DNA from: Candidatus Methanomethylophilaceae archaeon
GTDB taxonomy: Archaea > Thermoplasmatota > Thermoplasmata > Methanomassiliicoccales > Methanomethylophilaceae
Length of the DNA: 64,000 bases
Assembly: GCA_944320495.1 (NCBI GenBank)
Contig: CALUHR010000013.1
Coordinates: 384,001 to 448,000 of the forward strand
Reading direction: 5' to 3'
Shown here: positions 1,458 to 63,998 of the stretch, one piece after another
Layout: every line of letters begins with the position of its first letter
Position numbering within the stretch: the first letter of the stretch is position 1
Translations under genes and position numbers: made by a program
Notes under the pieces: model-generated
Seen by the model: only the letters and a program-made list of their open reading frames with translations
Told to the model about the DNA's origin: nothing
The model's database searches: none

Positions 1458-1673
1458 TCGCTCCTCGTCGTCCTCGACGTACTCCAGGATGTCCCCCGGC
1501 TGGCAGTCGAGGGCCTTGCATATCCCGTTCAGCGTCGAGAATCTTATCGCCGCGATCTTCCCGGTCTTGATGTTGGACAGGTTGACGTTCGATATCCCGA
1601 CCTTCTCGGCCAGCTGGTTGAGCTGGATCTTGCGGTCGGCCATGACCCTGTCCAGGCGGAGTATTATCGTCAT
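1458..1673 (-). CDS. Cro/CI (YozG-like) HTH regulator, 71 aa, ending at CGA
   Basis: LDRVMADRK...IRFSTLNGICKALDCQPGDILEY is the complete small family protein. An in-frame CGA at 1458-1460 abuts the stop of the convergent gene. The standard code would extend it to TAG at 795. Confidence 0.85.
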
Positions 1674-11412: not shown

Positions 11413-12440
11413 GGCGCGTGCCGATGGCCGAGGTGCCCTCGCGGATCGCGGGGGAGACGATAAACAGGCTGATGTCCCTCGGATACGTGGACATCCACGC
11501 CAGGATAGCGAAGGGCGACGGCTGCCGTCTGGTGCCGATACTGCCGGAGCACGTGGACGACGTCTCCGCGATGGGGTTCGCCATCACGGAGGGAGACGCC
11601 CATTCGCTGGACCGCAGGACGCCCCAGGAGAGGATCTCGGAGATCCTCGGGGGCATACCTGAACTGAGGGGTCATCTGCCCGACCGCTGGGAGTTCGTCG
11701 GTGACATCGTCATCCTGAAGCTGGACCCGTCCTGCGAACCGTATCTCGACGGCATCGGTGACGCCTATGCGAAGGTGCTCGGCGCCAAGACCGTGTGCGC
11801 GGACGTCCACGGCGTGTCCGGGGAGTTCCGTCAGCCCAGCATGAGGGTGATCCACGGCACCGAGACCGAGTCGGTGCGTCTCGAGAACGGCATCCGTTAC
11901 CGCTTCGACGTCACCAAGGTCATGTTCGCCTCCGGCAACACGGACGAGCGCATGCGCATGAGGAGCCTGGACTGCACCGGCGAGACCGTCGTGGACATGT
12001 TCGCTGGCATAGGGTACTTCACCCTCCCGCTGGCCAGGTTCTCTGGGGCCCGCAGGGTCTTCGCCTGCGAGAAGAATCCCGAATCCTACCATTATCTGGT
12101 GGAGAACGTCCGTCTCAACGAGGTGGGCGATGTGGTGCTGCCCATGCTCGGTGACAACCGCTCCATCCCGGGCAGGGACTTCGCGGACCGCATCCTGATG
12201 GGGTACGTGCAGACGACATCGGAGTTCCTGCCGGCGGCCCTGAGGATGATACGCATCGGCGGGATCATCCACTACCATGACACCTTCCCGGTGGGCGACC
12301 AGGCCCGCAGGGTCGACGAGATCTTCTCGCCGCTCTGCGGATACGAGGTCCTGGGGATCCGCGAGGTGAAGTCCTTCGCCCCGTCGGTGTCCCATTACGT
12401 CGCCGACGTCAGGATAACTTCTCGTTCGCCCCGCAGGCGA
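11409..12440 (+). CDS. taw2: Met-10+/TYW2-like SAM-dependent tRNA-modifying enzyme (Taw2-like)
   Basis: FDVTKVMFASGNTDERMRM, VVDMFAGIGYF, DRILMGY, IIHYH. CGA at 12438-12440; standard-code TAG at 12456-12458. Confidence 0.8.
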
Positions 12441-16009: not shown

Positions 16010-17518
16010 ATGAGACTGACCGCCGAGAACTACGACATCGGCATCGCCGAGCCGACGGCGTTGCTGCACGAGGACGACTGCAGGATCATCGGGATCCGCG
16101 AGGGCGACCACGTCCGCATCGAGGGGCGCGGATGCGTCACCGCGATAGCCAGCATGTCGGACACCCTGGTGAGGCGGGGCACGGTCATGATAGCCTGCGG
16201 GGTGCTCGGCGCCAGTTGCATCCACCCCGGCGATGAGGTGGAGGTCACCGCCGCGCCGATCCCGGAGTCCGTGAGGGCCATCCGCGGCAAGATGGACGGG
16301 GAGGAGCTGTCCCCGGAGGAGATCTCGCAGATCGTCGACGACGCGGTCCATGACAGGCTGTCGAGGATCGAGACCTCCGCATGGCTCACCGCCCTACACA
16401 TACGCGGCATGTCCATGTGCGAGACGGCGTCCTACACCAGTGCCATGGCGTCCACCGGCTCGGTCCTGGACTTCGGGGACCGCCGCGTGTTCGACTTCCA
16501 TAGCTTCGGAGGGGTCCCGGGCAACAAGATCACACCGATCGTGGTGTCGATCGTCGCGTCCGAGGGCCTGCTGATCCCGAAGCTCTCGTCGAGGGCCATA
16601 AGCAGTGCCTGCGGGACGGCCGATTTCGTGGAGGTGTTCTGTCCGGTGACCCACGGCTCGGACGATGTCCGCAGGATCGCGGAGTCCGAGGGCGGGGTGT
16701 TCTCCTGGACAGGTGCCACCGACCTGGCCCCCGCCGGGGACCGCTTCATCAGGGTCCAGCGTCCGCTCGGTATCGATCCGAAGCCGCAGATGCTCGCGTC
16801 GATCATGGCGAAGAAGGTCGCTGCCGGTGCCACCGATGTGCTCATGGACATCCCGATGGGGTCCGAGACCAAGGTCAGGTCCCCGGAGGAGGCCAAGGCC
16901 TACGCCCGCGACCTGATGGAGCTCGGGGACCTGCTGGGCATGAGGGTGGAGTGCGCGGTCACGTACGCGGACCAGCCCCTGGGCGTCGCCGTCGGGCCCG
17001 CGCCGGAGGCGAGGGAGTGCATCCAGGTGCTCGAGAACAGGCCGGGCCACGAGGAGGTGGCCGAGAAGGCATGCATCTGCGCCGGGATGATCCTGGAGAT
17101 GGCCGGGATGTGCGACGGCACCGTCCGCGCGAGGGAGTGCCTGACGTCCGGCCGCGCCCTGGAGAGGTTCAGGGCGATCGTCCGCGCCCAGGGCGGTATG
17201 GACGGGATAACTTCCGAGGACGTACGGCTGGGGCGCTTCTCCGCCGATGTCGTCTCGCCGAGGGACGGTTTCGTCAACCGCATATCGAACAGGGCCGTGG
17301 TCTCCGTGGCGAAGGCCGCCGGTGCCCCGGCGGACAAGGGCGCCGGGCTCGTGCTCTCGAGGAAGCGCGGGAGGAAGGTCGCGAAGGGCGACGTGCTCAT
17401 GACGGTGTACTCGGACAGCGAGGACAAGCTGGAGGACGCGCTGGAGGCGGCCGCGGAGCTGGAGCCGTTCGACATCGACGGGATGCTGCTGGACAGGATC
17501 AGGCCCGGCTCCCTCCGA
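16010..17518 (+). CDS. deoA: AMP phosphorylase (thymidine phosphorylase family)
   Basis: N-terminal beta-barrel extension, HSFGGVPGNK, SSRAISSACGTAD, SIMAKK, DKGAG. Ends CGA-TGA (17516-17521). Confidence 0.92.
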
Positions 17519-29316: not shown

Positions 29317-29388
29317 GGCCCTGTGGGGTAGCGGATATCCCGTCAGATTTCGGCACTGACAATCCGGGTTCGATTCCCGGCAGGGCCG
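29317..29388 (+). tRNA. tRNA-Arg(TCG), structurally atypical
   Basis: GGCCCTG/CAGGGCC acceptor, loop TTTCGGC, canonical T-arm, A20 present. It has an A31-A39 mismatch and G15-U48. CCA is not encoded. Confidence 0.85.
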
Positions 29389-29397
29389 CCTGTTTCT

Positions 29398-32879: not shown

Positions 32880-34427
32880 TCGCAGTTTGAGCAGTTTATC
32901 CGGGTTCGCGGCCCGGAGTATGAGGGGTTCCAGCCCTCCGAATGCGTCCGGGAGTGCGAAGCTCCCTCCGGCGGTGTCGCACGGCACGTACACCAGCCCC
33001 TTGACGCTGGGCTTGCTCAGCTTCAGCTTGGAGTGCGTCTGCGAGCACTGGGTCAGGTACATCTCCACCAGCCTGGACGCCTCGGTCCTGGTGCAGAGCG
33101 GGATGAACACGGTGCGGGATCCAGGGGACCCCTCGGATGCGGAGTCGGCGAGGCGGCCGATCCCCGCGCTCCCGCTGATGCTGTGCTCCTCGCCTTTGAG
33201 GCGGTTCAATATGGAGCTTTCGGGAGCCGCTGCGAAGATGTCGGTCAATCCCGAGCGGGGGTCGGACAGCGCCCTCTCGAACACCGTGAACACGGCGGGG
33301 ACCATCAGGTCCTCCTTCACGACCACGGACTTCTTGGAGAGGAACGAGCCGGTGGTGAAGCTGTACTGCAGGTCCACGTCCCAGAAGGGCATCAGCGAGT
33401 CGCCTCCGCCCTGGCATATCGGTATCGTGCCGCCGTTCTTGGCCGCCACGACGTCGTTGACGTAGCCGTAGAGCTCGAAGTCGCGGGCCTCCGACGTCAG
33501 CAGCCTGTTCCATTGCGGGTTGTCCGGGTATTCCGCGGAGGCGACCCCGTTGATCAGCGTGAGCGTCTTGAGCGGGTCCTTGGACGTGCCGTTGTTGACC
33601 ATGTCGACCACGTTCTTCAGCGTCCTGGTCTGGGAGATCTCCATGTCCACAGCCCTGAGGGTCACGGCGAGCCTGGGGTTGGAGAGCAGCTCCCTCTTCG
33701 CCGCCTCCAGCTCGGAGAGCCCCTCCTCCGCCTTGGCGGAGCATCCGAGGGCGTCCCCGTTGAGCACCATGTCGGATGCAGCGCAGACGTCGGACAGCGC
33801 CCTGAGCCTGGATGCGAGCGGCTCGTACCCTTCGCACTTCGCCATTGCGTCCGCCGATTCGAGGAAGTTCTTCGACATGATGGCGAAGCGCCCGGGGGAC
33901 CCGGTCTCGGTCAGCAGCTTGGAGTTGTTCAGTATCATCGCATAGGCGTTGGCGATGCCCTCGCCGGTGACGATGGATTTCCTGCTCTCGTCGTCCACGG
34001 CCATGGGCTCGACGCTCTTCAGCCTGGCCTGGAACTCGAAGGCCTGCGTGGAGGTGTGGTCGGACCTGACCGGCTCCCCCTTGCTGAACGGGAGCACGAT
34101 GAGCGGCGAGGCGATCACGGAGTTCAGCGCGAAGCGGTACTCGTTGATCTCCACGTCCACCCTGGGCTTGACGCTGTTGACGTATATGCTGTGCCTGGCG
34201 ACGGGGTCCACGTTGTCGACCGACCCCATGGCGAAGCCGCCGGGGATGGTCTTGGCGATCCAGCTCTGGATCTGCCCCATCATCTGCTCCATGTACTTCC
34301 TGGCGTCCAGCCTCTGCTGGGTGGTGCCGCAGCTGGGGCAGGTTATGTAGGGGGAGTCGGACTCTATGTCCTTCCTGTCGAGGGGCGCGCCGCAGTACTT
34401 GCAGCGCAGCTCAACCATGTCGTCCAT
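32880..34427 (-). CDS. N-terminal zinc-ribbon protein (YdjG-like)
   Basis: CKYCG...CPSCG, helical middle, PFW and YVP motifs in the C-terminal part. CGA at 32880; standard-code TAG at 32832. Confidence 0.75.
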
Positions 34428-53964: not shown

Positions 53965-54291
53965 TCGCTCGGGAAGGCGCTCGATCCTGAAGATGACGGG
54001 TCTCGTCCCGTCGTTGCAGCAGGCGATCATGACGCCGTCGTCCCTGTTCCACCCGTCCATGATGGCTCCGCCGTTCATGGCGGCGTAGACGTACCTGCTG
54101 ATGCAGCTCCATGCCTCCGAGCAGAACCTCCCGTGCATCAGATGACGCCATTCGTCGGGGGTGACGATGAACTCGTCGCCCGGGTGGAATAGCGAGCACG
54201 GCCCCGTCTCGGGGTTCGACAGATACTCCTTCTGGAGGTCATCGTAGCATCTGCATTCGAGGACGGTGATCCTCACGTTGTGCATCGTCAT
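53965..54291 (-). CDS. TIGR04076-family protein, copy 2 (ends at CGA)
   Basis: AWSCISRYVY...IACCNDGTRPVIFRIER. ATGA overlap with copy 1. CGA at 53965; the standard code would extend it to TAG at 53323. Confidence 0.88.
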
Positions 54292-59627: not shown

Positions 59628-60005
59628 TCGAAGGGCCGATGGGGGAACCCGAGGGATGACGCGGTCCACCTCGTTCTTCGCCCATGGCACGGTGTCCAGA
59701 TACTCATCGCGGTCGAAGGACAGCTCGTCCGGCAGCTCCGAGAACAGGCGGGACTCCATCTCGCAGTCCTCCCTGACCTTCCTACCGAGGATCGCCGCGC
59801 ACACGTCGCAGTACCCGATGTCGCGGGTGGCCACAATCTCGATCTCGTACCCCGCCTCCTCCAGGAACTCCCTCGCGGCGGCCTGGGCGGAGGTCTCTCC
59901 CTCCTCGACGTGTCCGCCGGGCATCTCCCAGCCCTTCCTGCGCCTGTGCCAGACCATCAGGAACCTGTCGCCGTCGAAGGCCACGGCGTAGGCGGTCCTG
60001 CCCAT
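59628..60005 (-). CDS. NUDIX hydrolase
   Basis: Nudix box GGHVEEGETSAQAAAREFLEEAG. CGA at 59628; standard-code TGA at 59619. Confidence 0.9.
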
Positions 60006-60711: not shown

Positions 60712-62322
60712 ATGATAACGATGCGGGACCTCGTGGCCATCGCCGACGCGGTCCAGGAGGCTGTCGACAGCATACCCAGTTCGGAGGAGCGGGGCAAGAA
60801 GGTGTGCATGGGCGCGGACGGGTCGTGCTCGTCCGAGGTGGACAAGGTCGCCGAGAACGCCGCCCTGATGTACATCGAGCGCGAGCATCTGCCGCTGAAC
60901 GTCCTGAGCGAGGAGATCGGCTACGTGGACAACGGCGGCGAGGAGGTCCTGGTCATGGACCCGGTCGACGGGACGTCCAACGCCATAGCCGGGCTGCCGC
61001 TGTACACCGTGTCCCTGGCCGTGGGCGCCTCGTGCCTGTCCGATGTGCGCCTGGCGTACATGAGGAACCTCGCCACCGGCGACGCCATGTGGGCGGAGAG
61101 GGGCAAGGGGGCGTTCAAGAACGGCGAGCCCATCCACGTCAGGCGCGCCGAGCTGGACGACATCTTCCTGATGATCTACGAGGGCAACGGGGCCCACCCG
61201 GATGCATTCTCCGTCGCCAAGGTCGTCCGCTCCTCCAGGTCGCTGGGCTGCACCTCCCTCGAGATGGGCATCGTCGCCGAGGGCCAGGCGGACGGCTACT
61301 TCATGAAGGCCGAGAAGTACACCCGCTCGGTCCGCGTGGTGGACATCGCCGCCAGCTCCCTCATCCTGAGGGAGGCGGGAGGGGAGGTCTACGACCTTGA
61401 CAACAACGTCCTCGACATGCCCTTCGACCTCGAGCACCGCTCCAACTTCCTCGCCGTGGGCGACCGGAGGATCTACGACATCATCGTCAGGCACAGGGTC
61501 AGCCACGTCCACAGGTACGGGGTGTACGCGAACGCGCATATAGGCAACATCCTGGACCCCGCCCGCAGGGTCATCGACGTGCTCAGGGAGGAGGGCGCCG
61601 ACTTCTGCGTAGACACCGAGATCGCCGATGCGCTGGGAGTCCCGGGCATACCCCTGTCCAGGATGGGCGCTGACATCGTGATCGTCGTCGGAGGGGACGG
61701 CACCATCCTCCGCGCGCTCCAGGCCACCGACGCCATAATCGTCGGCGTCAACGGCGGCAGCGTGGGGTTCCTCGCGGAGATCGAGACCGACGGCATCGAG
61801 GAGGGCATCAGGAGGCTACTGGCCGAGGACTACATCGTGGAGTCCAGGTTCAAGATCGCCACCTTCTACAACGGCGAGTACCTGAAGGACTCGGTGAACG
61901 AGGCCGTGGTGCACACCGACACGATCGCCAAGATCCGCCACTTCAGGGTGTACGTCGACGACGTGCTCGCCTCGGAGCTCAGATCCGACGGCGTCATAGT
62001 CTCCACCCCGACCGGGTCCACCTGCTACGCGATGTCCCTCGGTGCCCCGTACATGGATCCGAAGGTCGAGGCGATGATGGTGGTCCCGATGGCCGCCTAC
62101 AGGTTCAACTCCCGCCCGTTCGTGGTCCCCGCCACATCCAAGGTCACCGTAGAGAACGTCCTGGACAAGGGATGCATCATCGTGCTGGACGGACAGGAGG
62201 AGATCTACATGGAGGGAGGGTCCAAGGTCGAGTTCATGATGTCCGAGAGGAGGGCGAGGTTCGTCCGCTTCGACACCGACTTCTACTCCAGGGTCAAGGA
62301 CAAGCTGGTGAACTCCCTATGA
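60712..62322 (+). CDS. ppnK: Bifunctional inositol-monophosphatase-like NADP phosphatase / NAD kinase
   Basis: SEE and DPVDGT in the IMPase domain, then GGDGT, NE and STPTGSTCYAMS in the NAD kinase domain. Confidence 0.92.
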   Translation: MITMRDLVAIADAVQEAVDSIPSSEERGKKVCMGADGSCSSEVDKVAENAALMYIEREHLPLNVLSEEIGYVDNGGEEVLVMDPVDGTSNAIAGLPLYTVSLAVGASCLSDVRLAYMRNLATGDAMWAERGKGAFKNGEPIHVRRAELDDIFLMIYEGNGAHPDAFSVAKVVRSSRSLGCTSLEMGIVAEGQADGYFMKAEKYTRSVRVVDIAASSLILREAGGEVYDLDNNVLDMPFDLEHRSNFLAVGDRRIYDIIVRHRVSHVHRYGVYANAHIGNILDPARRVIDVLREEGADFCVDTEIADALGVPGIPLSRMGADIVIVVGGDGTILRALQATDAIIVGVNGGSVGFLAEIETDGIEEGIRRLLAEDYIVESRFKIATFYNGEYLKDSVNEAVVHTDTIAKIRHFRVYVDDVLASELRSDGVIVSTPTGSTCYAMSLGAPYMDPKVEAMMVVPMAAYRFNSRPFVVPATSKVTVENVLDKGCIIVLDGQEEIYMEGGSKVEFMMSERRARFVRFDTDFYSRVKDKLVNSL

Positions 62323-62693
62323 CGAGGATACGCGGGGTGGACGTGGACTTCATAGACGCCTTCAACGAGGCGGCCCGTTCCACCTACCCCGACGAGTTCC
62401 TCTGCATGCACCGCGAGATCGACGGCATCATCAGCGAGATGGTCATGCTGCCAGGGACGGTGTACGGGGACTCGCACAGCTTCCTGAACCAGTGGATGGC
62501 CCCGATAGACTACAGTCTGGCGGGCTCCGCCCACTCGCACCCGGGGTACTCGAACGAGCCCTCTGATGCCGACAAGGACTTCTTCAGGAACACAGGGGGC
62601 ATCCACTTCATAACGTGTCAGCCATACGACAGGACCAGCTGGCGCGCCTATGACTCCTACGGGGAGCCGGTAGACATCGAGGTCATCTACCGA
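62319..62693 (+). CDS. JAB/MPN (Mov34) metalloprotease, 124 aa, ending at CGA
   Basis: E...HSHP...PSDAD JAMM motif. ATGA overlap with ppnK. CGA at 62691 abuts the stop of the convergent gene. The standard code would extend it to TAG at 63842. Confidence 0.88.
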
Positions 62694-63998
62694 TCACTCG
62701 GCCCTGAGGACGCGCTGGACCAGTTCGTCGGCCATCTCCATCAGGCCGATGATGTAGGCCATGTCCTGGGACTCGGCTATTGTCTCGACGACCTGGTCCT
62801 CCCCGTCCTGCCTGAGGCGCACGAGGAACCATCCGCCGTCCATGGACACGCGGAACTCAGATCCGTACTGGGAGGTCCTCCCAGCCACCTGCCCGAGGTT
62901 CTCCTCCACGGCCCTCCTGAACACATCGGGCCTCATCTGACACTCGTAGGTGCGGCTGTCGCGGATGTAGGACGGCAGCCTCTCCGTGACCGAGTGGAGG
63001 CTGTTGCCCCCGGCCATCTTGGCGATGGCCGCCGCGGTGCGCACGCCGTCTCCTATGGCGGCTCCGCCCCCGAAGACGATGCTGCCGTGGTAGTATCCGA
63101 GGTCCGCACCGGACGCGACCGCCTCGCATATGGCGGCGGCACTGTCCTGGGTCATCACGGCGCTCCTCTCCGGCGGTTCCTCGAACGGGGTGCTCACCTC
63201 GACGTCTATGCGACCCATGAGGGCGTCCTCGATCACCGACGGGGCGTCTGCGGTGATGGCGATGGTGGCCGGTCTCATGTACAGGACCAGGAGGGCGAAC
63301 ACGCGGTCCATGGGTATCACGTCGCCCTGCTCGTCCACGACGTCGACGGCCGTGCCCACGGGGTTGATCCCGATGCCGATGCTTCCCGGGGTCGCCCCGA
63401 CGAGTCTCTTCAGCCCGTCGAGCGAATCCTCGTCCGCCGTCGGGAGCGGGTGGAAGTCCTCGTCCCACTGCGCGTTGACAGCAAGAACGTCGGCGCCGAG
63501 GGCGTTGAGGATCTGGGGGACGGAATGGGCCCCGCATCCGCACCGGCAGTCCACGACGACGGTGCATCCGGCGCCCCCCACGAACATGGACTCGACCTTC
63601 GCGTTGTACTCCTCGGTGATCCCGTCGCGGATGGAGTAGCCTCCGAGACCTTCGTGATCCGGGGCCGGCGGGGGGTTCTGGAGGACGACCTCCAGGTGCC
63701 TGATCTGGTCGTCCCTGAACAGGCTCCCGTCGGGATTGACGAGGAAGTACCCGCTGATCATGCCCGGGCGGGCGGCGACGTACACCAGGCAGTCGCCCAG
63801 GTCCGAGCGGCTGGCCGCCACGGGTATCCCTACGACACCTAGGTCGATGACGTCCGCCCCCTGGGACAGCAGCCCCGAGATCACGGCGTCTGCCATCATC
63901 GAGCTGCTGCGCATCGGGTCGCGAGCGACGACCACCCTGCCGTGGTCCGCGGCAAGGGCCCTTCCGAGCACGATGCCGTCCTCCGGGGACATCTCCCC
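62694..63998 (-). CDS. Phosphoglucomutase/phosphomannomutase-fold protein, degenerate active site (5' partial)
   Basis: LGRAL, VVVARDPMRSS, VVVDCRCG, ILNALG, DGVRTAA patterns. The frame stays open to the window edge. Confidence 0.8.
   Translation of the reverse strand, partial: GEMSPEDGIVLGRALAADHGRVVVARDPMRSSSMMADAVISGLLSQGADVIDLGVVGIPVAASRSDLGDCLVYVAARPGMISGYFLVNPDGSLFRDDQIRHLEVVLQNPPPAPDHEGLGGYSIRDGITEEYNAKVESMFVGGAGCTVVVDCRCGCGAHSVPQILNALGADVLAVNAQWDEDFHPLPTADEDSLDGLKRLVGATPGSIGIGINPVGTAVDVVDEQGDVIPMDRVFALLVLYMRPATIAITADAPSVIEDALMGRIDVEVSTPFEEPPERSAVMTQDSAAAICEAVASGADLGYYHGSIVFGGGAAIGDGVRTAAAIAKMAGGNSLHSVTERLPSYIRDSRTYECQMRPDVFRRAVEENLGQVAGRTSQYGSEFRVSMDGGWFLVRLRQDGEDQVVETIAESQDMAYIIGLMEMADELVQRVLRAE

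Follow-up and report, generated by a model that had tools for sequence, protein, structure and literature searches.

To our knowledge, changes of the genetic code in which a sense codon has acquired the meaning of a stop are known only from organelles. The described cases are AGA and AGG in vertebrate mitochondria, UCA in Scenedesmus and UUA in the mitochondria of Thraustochytrium (NCBI tables 2, 22 and 23), and in these codes, as in the archaeal genus considered here, a codon with a sense meaning in the standard code replaces the canonical stops at gene ends and is missing from gene interiors. The organelle codes belong to tiny genomes with a handful of genes, whereas here about 300 genes are affected in a free-living (gut) archaeon with a chromosome of 1.8 Mb; the present case also differs from them in that the codon is CGA, that the cognate tRNA is retained, and that the codon remains partly ambiguous.

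Release at CGA by a factor of the eRF1/aRF1 family has been described in yeast (Wada & Ito 2018, PMC7379694), where eRF1/eRF3 measurably misdecodes CGA in competition with tRNA-Arg, and where the substitutions L123F/R/Y in the YxCxxxF motif, which are UGA-biased variants, raise this release. The yeast activity is a low-level error or rescue reaction on an artificial reporter, while in the genome analyzed here about 22% of genes apparently use CGA as their regular terminator. Codons which a release factor or a tRNA reads according to position or context are known from methanogens in which UAG is either a stop or Pyl (PMC12626013) and from Condylostoma and Parduczia, which have no dedicated stop (PMC4967479); these systems share backup stops and context biases with the CGA described here, but in them a stop gained a sense meaning, whereas here a sense codon would have gained the meaning of a stop. 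[quoted passage not shown] No publication was found that describes CGA as a stop, whether in archaea or in any free-living organism, and the literature matches for “CGA stop codon” concern editing in plant mitochondria.

The JAB gene and its convergent neighbour

The locus lies in a window of 64,000 nt, the whole stretch of DNA that was analyzed (assembly GCA_944320495.1, contig CALUHR010000013.1, positions 384,001-448,000 of the forward strand, Candidatus Methanomethylophilaceae archaeon), and all coordinates given below are those of the window. The source genus is Candidatus Methanoprimaticola, a gut methanogen. A plus-strand CDS of 124 codons at 62319..62690 encodes a predicted JAB/JAMM metalloprotease of the AfJAMM (MPN+) type, and its ATG (62319-62321) overlaps the TGA (62320-62322) of the upstream gene in the arrangement ATGA. 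This upstream gene, an inositol-monophosphatase/NAD-kinase type fusion recognized from the ORF list and the sequence, occupies 60712..62322 of the plus strand, with an approximate start. The last sense codon of the JAB gene is TAC (Tyr124, 62688-62690), and the codon that follows it is CGA (62691..62693, plus strand), in the context CGA-TC which is the commonest for terminator CGAs. The minus-strand TGA of a convergent PGM/PMM-like gene (read as TCA at 62694-62696) adjoins this CGA with a spacer of 0, so that the junction reads CGATCA, which is the abutment that the first-pass annotation had described. The PGM/PMM-like gene itself (62694..63992, minus strand, 432 aa, from the ORF list, with matches to Pfam PGM_PMM_I and II) has a GC3 of 0.90 and a coding score of +0.71, and the JAB CDS has very similar values (0.89 and +0.73).

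The 124-residue product matches Prok-JAB (PF14464) at 33.8 bits, the cut-off being 25 (E=3.3e-8), and its residues 13-123 align with residues 12-121 of AfJAMM (chain 1OI0_A, 124 aa; E=4e-21), with the metal-site residues E26, H72, H74, S82 and D85, in the arrangement E26 plus H72-x-H74-x7-S82-x2-D85, falling on the same residues of that structure. AfJAMM (AF2198; PDB 1OI0, 1R5X) is a stand-alone archaeal JAMM/MPN+ domain of the same length, 124 aa, and has the Glu and HxH...S..D motif in common with the present protein, although the two sequences differ substantially and the gene described here ends at CGA; a defined substrate is available for neither. Orthologue lengths range from 122 to 126 aa, with two at 132 aa; none of 80 orthologues has an in-frame CGA inside the CDS, and apart from its terminator the CDS is intact and conserved. 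On the basis of these alignments the product of the JAB gene is a complete single-domain protein of 124 residues, a predicted metalloprotease of the AfJAMM type that ends in ...EPVDIEVIY, and the first-pass annotation, which had placed the end of the protein there, is borne out by the full-length match to AfJAMM as well as by the ends of the orthologues.

Under translation table 11 the JAB frame stays open until TAG 63840-63842 (ORF 62172..63842), which adds 383 sense codons, all of them antisense to the PGM/PMM-like gene; the 384 codons antisense to that gene and ending at a TAG that had been proposed for an arginine reading are thus recovered with a count of 383. The stretch 62694..63842 is, judged by its composition, non-coding in the JAB frame. 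It matches no Pfam family over its 383 aa, its coding score of -0.22 is below the 1st percentile of gene cores, and its GC1 of 0.90 and GC3 of 0.67 are the mirror image of the minus-strand gene, which is the composition of an antisense reading. It also contains 4 more CGA and 13 CGG codons. The first of these CGAs in frame is at 62991-62993, so that the JAB terminator has no backup stop for 100 codons if the next CGA is counted, or for 383 codons if only the TAG is. The distance from the CGA to the next standard stop is not conserved, ranging from 6 to 283 codons among congeners, and the extension measures 236 codons in one and 383 in the other of two strains that are 99% identical. In a collection of 15 billion proteins no exact match was on record for the product of 124, 507 or 556 aa, and a search of a public protein collection for longer JAB homologues (218-2000 aa) at E<=1e-10 also returned none, which is weak evidence.

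CGA at gene ends in the genus and the genome

Alignment of the JAB orthologues at the terminator column, the check suggested along with the first-pass annotation, shows that the codon following residue 124 in 52 congeneric genomes is TGA in 38, CGA in 13 and TAG in 1. It had been claimed that CGA ends the gene rather than being read as arginine, and the TGA that most congeners carry at the same column agrees with this. The CGATCA arrangement is not a chance pattern, because 13 of 52 orthologues of the same genus carry CGA at this position, and in the genus genomes no other sense codon stands at the column without a stop inside two codons. Among roughly 130 orthologues from the order Methanomassiliicoccales the proteins end within 0-2 residues of the column, with the exception of two that have 8 extra residues, and the same range of 0-2 residues holds for 23 congeners and 15 genomes of other families; the conserved long C-terminal extension that would have spoken against termination at CGA was not found in the orthologues of the order. 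The PGM/PMM-like gene is convergent with the JAB gene in all 22 congeners that have a match, the distance between the two stops being -7 to +11 nt. Two congeners (G022 and G024) have TGATCA in place of the CGATCA of the window, with the same neighbour and a gap of 0, while CGATCA recurs in an independent assembly with 99% identity (G018, CASFYI01).

When the terminators are placed on a tree built from the CDS and its flank, for which the upstream gene was used, at least 7 switches between CGA and a standard stop are required, 6 of which are forced by well-supported branches, and in none of 500 shuffles were there as few switches as observed. CGA probably interchanges freely with TGA through a single T/C transition, and the present junction probably arose from an ancestral TGATCA with the convergent stops back to back. 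The repeated alternation of TGA and CGA among sister species adds to the usefulness of the JAB site as a clean test case, which combines a small conserved gene and a solved structural homologue with predicted products of 14 versus 55 kDa.

Genome-wide, 313 of 1409 well-supported, strongly coding ORF ends (about 22%) are at CGA, as determined with crude ORF and codon-score gene models rather than a trained gene caller. The in-frame sequence following these ends resembles that following TGA: the coding score is -0.64 after CGA, with 4% still coding, and -0.72 after TGA, with 5.5% still coding, compared to 52-68% still coding after six control sense codons. CGA has a U-shaped distribution along standard-code ORFs, and its avoidance is frame-specific, with 0.62 per 1000 codons in frame 0 of ORF cores versus 17 and 70 in the two remaining frames of the sense strand; the whole genome has only 3-5 CGAs that are plausibly internal. 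In aligned codons of the NADK (upstream), JAB and PGM genes the count is 2 in 52,783 for the genus (0.04 per 1000); the corresponding rates are 0.38 per 1000 for sister genera within the family and 2.33 per 1000 beyond the family.

The use of CGA at gene ends is not uniform. Its share of terminators falls from 34% in the lowest codon-bias quartile to 6% in the highest, a backup stop is found within 5 codons of 40% of CGA ends as opposed to 23% of TGA ends, and 57% of CGA terminators are followed by T at +4, compared to 23% of all CGA trinucleotides. No relation was found between the +4 context and the distance of the backup stop.

Taken with the conservation of the terminator column, these patterns, all of them from comparative sequence analysis, make it probable that translation of the JAB gene ends at CGA 62691-62693 and that CGA serves as a weak, context-dependent fourth terminator in Candidatus Methanoprimaticola. 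If CGA does terminate in this genus, then every standard gene caller gets about one fifth of the genes wrong, fusing them to antisense junk, truncating them or dropping them, as would happen to the JAB gene, and a sense-to-stop change has occurred in a free-living organism. The genus is one of human-gut methanogens for which at least one RefSeq genome is available (Ca. Methanoprimaticola sp. MG2).

Proposed decoding of CGA by aRF1 and tRNA-Arg(UCG)

The cognate tRNA for CGA, tRNA-Arg(UCG), is encoded in the window itself (29317..29390, plus strand, detected with ARAGORN) and has an A.A mismatch at the anticodon-stem pair 31:39. It is retained in 13 genus genomes with compensatory changes in the anticodon stem, and in all of them the 31:39 pair is mismatched, while 11 genomes from five further genera of the family have a Watson-Crick pair there; in the sequences compared, the broken pair is genus-specific. 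The loss of the cognate tRNA that serves as a criterion for sense-to-stop changes is therefore not what is found here, and the retention of the tRNA means that CGA is ambiguous rather than cleanly reassigned. The description of CGA as an unassigned codon, for which the cognate tRNA would be expected to be missing, was rejected because tRNA-Arg(UCG) is present. A BLAST search with the tRNA recovered it in only 12 of 41 genomes on account of its fast evolution, and a covariance model is needed for the search; in other families of the order the best covariance-model matches are to tRNA-Arg(GCG).

The aRF1 gene of the genus contains one conserved in-frame CGA (Arg88), present in 26 of 27 genus genomes and located between NIKS and the YxCxxxF and GGQ motifs, which are essential to the factor. 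A loss of the NIKS, YxCxxxF or GGQ motif of aRF1 was looked for and not found, all three being intact. Adjoining NIKS there are genus- and family-specific substitutions (Q at position 56, A at position 59, and K-T-T-M after NIKS), which in these sequence comparisons only correlate with the CGA trait, and the x position of YxCxxxF that matches yeast L123 is R, one of the residues found in the UGA-biased yeast variants that boost CGA release. Across the whole family, the pattern of one or more CGAs in aRF1 does not extend to all of the more distant genera (g10, g19-g22, g27), some of which have none. A further in-frame CGA joins gmhA to gmhB; no start codon follows it, and in two congeners the codon at this column is AGA. 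Judging from these alignments, the in-frame CGAs of the aRF1 gene and of the gmhA-gmhB junction must be decoded as arginine, and termination at CGA is therefore not absolute. With the cognate tRNA still present, and with two or more conserved in-frame CGAs at other loci that must be read as arginine, some readthrough may also occur at the JAB CGA.

The mechanism that we infer is one in which the single archaeal release factor, aRF1, would accept either U or C at the first position of the codon and so read CGA, competing with the retained but weakened tRNA-Arg(UCG). Termination would dominate where U follows CGA, as it does at the JAB gene, and a few sites in other contexts (aRF1 codon 88 and the gmhA-gmhB junction) would be read through as arginine. 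It is possible, at somewhat less than even chances in our estimation, that CGA has a dual meaning in the full sense, being by default a terminator read by aRF1 and at a few programmed sites an arginine codon read by the weakened tRNA, with the CGA in the gene for aRF1 itself forming a feedback loop like that of prfB and with gmhA-CGA-gmhB producing both GmhA and a GmhA-GmhB fusion. The likeness to the in-frame UGA autoregulation of prfB (RF2) is that the release-factor gene carries the codon which its factor is proposed to read, so that negative feedback is possible; prfB escapes by a +1 frameshift, whereas aRF1 would escape by tRNA-Arg(UCG) readthrough, and its regulation is putative. If this dual meaning is real, it would be the first sense-to-stop change in a cellular chromosomal code, and one with regulatory circuitry. 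The evolutionary route and the mechanism can be tested directly through the retained weakened tRNA, the context-dependent use of the terminator and the in-frame CGA in the release-factor gene.

Competing explanations for CGA at gene ends

The conventional explanation, that CGA is arginine as in the standard code and that the JAB product is a protein of 507 residues, the last 383 of them encoded antisense to the PGM/PMM-like gene, can point to the frame that is open to TAG 63840-63842 and to the presence of a cognate tRNA. It would require, however, that a stretch with no family, an antisense composition, a coding score of -0.22 and 4 further CGAs be translated, that its length vary by as much as the congeners and the near-identical strains show, and that it be lacking in orthologues which end at the terminator column; the failure to find a longer homologue in the public protein collection points, weakly, the same way, and we consider this explanation extremely improbable. 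Equally improbable is that the CGA is a strain-specific stop-loss mutation, the mark of a pseudogene or an assembly error in which TGA was miscalled or mutated. Only one transition separates CGA from TGA, but the same CGATCA stands in the independent assembly G018, CGA is present at the column in 13 of 52 congeners with at least 7 switches, 313 ORFs in the genome end at CGA, and the JAB CDS is otherwise intact. Conversion of the terminal CGA into UGA by C-to-U editing of the mRNA would leave the code itself standard and has a precedent in plant organelles, “CGA stop codons” being annotated in plant mitochondria. We know of no mRNA C-to-U editing in archaea. In the same mRNAs, moreover, the +1 and +2 frames are rich in CGA and CGAT, with 17 and 70 per 1000 compared to 0.62 in frame, so that with an avoidance that is strictly frame-specific an editing enzyme would need more than 300 site-specific targets, and it would have to spare the in-frame CGAs of aRF1 and gmhA-gmhB; editing is thus very improbable.

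The remaining alternative, which is unlikely although it is to be taken more seriously than those above, is that CGA is a starved codon which aRF1 does not recognize, and which the weakened tRNA-Arg(UCG) decodes so slowly that ribosomes stall and are released or recycled by a rescue or no-go system of the Pelota/aABCE1 type, with no codon-specific termination. The 31:39 pair that is broken in 13 of 13 genus genomes and not in five sister genera is consistent with such stalling, as are the avoidance of CGA terminators by the genes with the strongest codon bias and the canonical NIKS that aRF1 has kept. Rescue of the Pelota type is not known to hydrolyse peptidyl-tRNA, and without this hydrolysis there would be no finished proteins for 22% of all genes. 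Reading of CGA by aRF1 as a terminator is favoured over stalling by the fact that it is the release-factor gene in which a conserved in-frame CGA is found, a location that suggests aRF1 as the reader, and by the ability of yeast eRF1 to release at CGA (PMC7379694). It is also favoured by the strong +4 context preference at CGA terminators, a preference of the kind that is typical of release-factor decoding.

The end of the JAB gene

The JAB/JAMM metalloprotease gene (62319-62690, +) ends at a CGA codon. The junction at which this codon abuts the stop of a convergent gene had been described in the first-pass annotation, and that description is right in all details: the sequence reads ...GTC ATC TAC-CGA-TCA CTC..., in which TAC (Tyr124; 62688-62690, +) is the last sense codon, CGA (62691-62693, +) is the terminator, and TCA (62694-62696) is the TGA stop of a minus-strand PGM-like open reading frame of 432 amino acids (62694-63992, -) with Pfam domains PGM_PMM_I and II. 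At the other end of the JAB gene, the ATG start (62319) and the TGA of the upstream gene overlap as ATGA. The window covers C13:384001-448000 of the source genome (1.77 Mb, 62% GC, 14 contigs). Among the named relatives at the JAB locus are Candidatus Methanoprimaticola hominis Mx06 and Ca. Methanoprimaticola sp. MG2, and many of the relatives are human and animal gut MAGs labelled Methanomethylophilaceae or Methanomassiliicoccales.

Under the standard code (table 11) the JAB frame is open from 62172 to a TAG at 63840-63842 (+), and the part beyond the CGA (62694-63842, +) is an extension of 383 amino acids. The resulting 507-amino acid product is rejected because the 124-amino acid protein is complete, the extension is antisense-like, orthologues end at the same column, and CGA marks the ends of reading frames throughout the genome. 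Pfam places Prok-JAB (PF14464) on the 124-residue part and no family on the extension. Residues 13-123 align to residues 12-121 of the 124-residue AfJAMM (AF2198, PDB 1OI0; E=4e-21), and the metal site of that crystal-structure protein, Glu plus HxH...S..D, is common to both. The JAB coding sequence has a GC3 of 0.89 and a codon score of +0.73, while the extension, with a GC1 of 0.90 and a GC3 of 0.67, is the mirror image of the PGM-like gene (GC3 0.90), scores -0.22, which is below the first percentile of gene cores, and holds a further 4 CGA and 13 CGG codons. The extension is also under no constraint, since the distance from the CGA to the next standard stop varies between genomes: it is 383 codons here and 236 in a 99%-identical strain, and ranges from 6 to 283 among congeners with CGA.

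Alternation of CGA and standard stops in the genus

In 23 congeners, and in 15 genomes drawn from six further families of the order, the C-terminus of the JAB protein lies 0-2 residues from Tyr124. The orthologue survey covered 80 named genomes, of which the 52 with at least 76% identity were taken as genus level; the terminator in these 52 is TGA in 38, CGA in 13 and TAG in one, and none of the 80 orthologous coding sequences contains an in-frame CGA. Wherever a congener has another sense codon at the terminator column, a TGA follows within the next two codons. A maximum-likelihood tree, built from 900 nt of upstream flank and the JAB coding sequence with the terminator excluded, implies that CGA and a standard stop have been exchanged at least seven times, six of these exchanges being imposed by branches with support of 95% or more; no label shuffle out of 500 gave as few changes. 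The PGM-like gene is convergent with JAB in every congener with a match, with -7 to +11 nt between the two stops, and two same-genus genomes (G022 and G024) have TGATCA at the exact position of the CGATCA of the source genome and its independent 99%-identical assembly (G018). From this pattern of terminators, CGA behaves at the JAB site as a synonymous alternative to TGA. The orthologue ends, this alternation and the non-coding extension support the earlier view that the gene ends at the CGA. Strain-specific loss of a stop codon, or an assembly error, is contradicted by the orthologues and by the distribution of CGA across the genome.

CGA across the genome

Gene interiors avoid in-frame CGA, and CGA recurrently replaces TGA. 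Along standard-code reading frames CGA has a strongly U-shaped distribution: the first decile holds 32% of the codons, the final one 25% and the middle about 1%. CGC and AGG are flat. When CGA was counted as a fourth stop, with a strong coding signal demanded in the 60 codons before the end, 1409 reading frame ends were obtained (TGA 1004, CGA 313, TAG 51, TAA 41). The 60 in-frame codons downstream of CGA have a codon score of -0.64 and are still coding in 4% of cases, compared with -0.72 and 5.5% after TGA, and 52-68% still coding after the mock stops CGG, CGT, AGA, CTA, TCA and CCA. Where coding sequence of NADK, JAB and PGM was aligned across species, the genus has 2 CGA in 52,783 codons, other genera of the family 0.38 per 1000, and other families 2.33 per 1000. 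Within the window, CGA is found at 8 of 53 well-supported ends; the seven besides JAB include 1458-1460 (-), 12438-12440 (+), 17516-17518 (+), 32880-32882 (-), 53965-53967 (-) and 59628-59630 (-). As a separate observation, 43% of the 51 well-supported TAG ends are followed by in-frame coding signal, compared with about 5% after TGA, which fits frequent TAG readthrough (pyrrolysine) in a methylotrophic methanogen.

The terminal CGA could in principle be converted to a standard stop by C-to-U editing, or the ribosome could stall at a starved CGA codon and be rescued. Editing is unlikely, because the avoidance of CGA is frame-specific: its frequency per 1000 is 0.62 in frame compared with 17 and 70 in the other two sense-strand frames, and TGA has the same kind of pattern. 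This frame specificity points to the ribosome as the reader of the signal, and speaks against sequence-specific editing or cleavage of RNA. Stall-and-rescue is the main alternative to a mechanism in which the archaeal release factor aRF1 would itself accept either U or C as the first base of the codon, in competition with a weakened tRNA. We infer release by aRF1 because the release-factor gene itself has a conserved CGA, because yeast eRF1 competes with tRNA-Arg for CGA and releases there, the more so with L123F, R or Y at the x position of YxCxxxF (PMC7379694), and because aRF1 has family- or genus-specific substitutions beside NIKS. These are Q for F/Y at 56, A for S at 59, and K-T-T-M for Q/K-G/S-T-R after NIKS; the YxCxxxF region reads Y-R-C-D-S in every aRF1 of the order examined. 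The GTS loop affects stop-codon discrimination, according to work on eRF1, and among the members of the order examined, G-R-S-T-E occurs in this region (about residue 37) only in the species of the source genome and in the sister assembly with 99% identity; almost all others have G-R-G-T-E (one has G-R-N-T and one G-K-G-T). The relations between these aRF1 substitutions and CGA termination are, as seen in sequence, correlations only.

A probable leaky stop and its cognate tRNA

As a stop, CGA seems weak and dependent on context. It supplies 34% of terminators in the quartile with the least codon bias and 6% in the one with the most (Mann-Whitney p=4e-25), and a further in-frame stop lies within five codons of 40% of CGA ends versus 23% of TGA ends. 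A T stands at +4 in 57% of CGA terminators; the figure is 29% for TGA terminators and 23% for CGA trinucleotides overall. The JAB site has the most frequent context of terminator CGAs, CGA-TC (28%). Convergent back-to-back stops are frequent genome-wide (CGA|TCG 48, CGA|TCA 20), common gene junctions being CGATCA/TGATCG and the palindrome CGATCG, where CGA terminates each of the two convergent genes. The JAB site appears to be a textbook-quality instance of a genus-wide leaky CGA terminator that is apparently undescribed: full-text literature searches did not turn up CGA as a terminator in any archaeon or free-living organism, CGA goes unmentioned in a 2025 PNAS study of the stop codons used by Methanomethylophilaceae, and sense-to-stop changes are undetectable by Codetta.

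CGA is not a pure stop, and its cognate tRNA persists in altered form. The tRNA-Arg(UCG) gene (29317-29390, +; ARAGORN) is conserved in 13 genomes of the genus, and its compensatory changes, at pairs 27:43, 28:42 and 29:41 of the anticodon stem, are those of a working tRNA. All 13 Methanoprimaticola genomes have a mismatch (A.A, U.C or C.A) at pair 31:39, leaving effectively a 4-bp anticodon stem; in five other genera of the family, represented by 11 genomes, this pair is Watson-Crick. The sequence of the tRNA changes at an unusually high rate, with 79-91% identity between members of the genus.

Very few in-frame CGAs in the source genome are flanked by coding sequence on both sides. The single-copy aRF1 gene (C2:85936-87195, -; 1492-2754 of locus L031), which lies outside the window, has CGA at codon 88 (context GCT CGA CTN AAR) in all but one of the 27 genomes of the genus, with variation at adjoining synonymous sites; the exception has its CGA at Arg35 instead. 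Since this CGA lies between NIKS and YxCxxxF/GGQ, a functional factor needs readthrough. The aRF1 gene of the closer sister genera likewise has one CGA, at Arg21, 35, 37, 60, 88 or 133. The conserved in-frame CGA can be compared to the prfB feedback loop and suggests a candidate autoregulation of aRF1.

The gmhA-gmhB junction (C13:193621-194700, -; 819-1901 of locus L213), also outside the window, is a second such site: in 16 genus genomes an in-frame CGA comes after gmhA (SIS domain), and the HAD DxD motif of gmhB comes directly after the CGA. In several of the 16, including the source genome, no start codon follows the CGA, and other congeners have AGA (2), TAG (2) or TAA (4, with gmhB shifted one base and behind a GTG) at this column; these features indicate that the CGA is read as Arg often enough to give a GmhA-GmhB fusion. 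The site is a candidate for programmed CGA readthrough yielding GmhA plus the fusion. The +4 contexts of these two readthrough sites are rare among terminators (CGA-CT 0.6%, CGA-GC 2.9%). A flavodoxin-like gene (C8:55331-55837, +; 432-941 of locus L214) also has an in-frame CGA inside its domain, at codon 119, which is AGG in the nearest orthologues; the codon is either a nonsense-like variant confined to the species or a leaky site that is tolerated.
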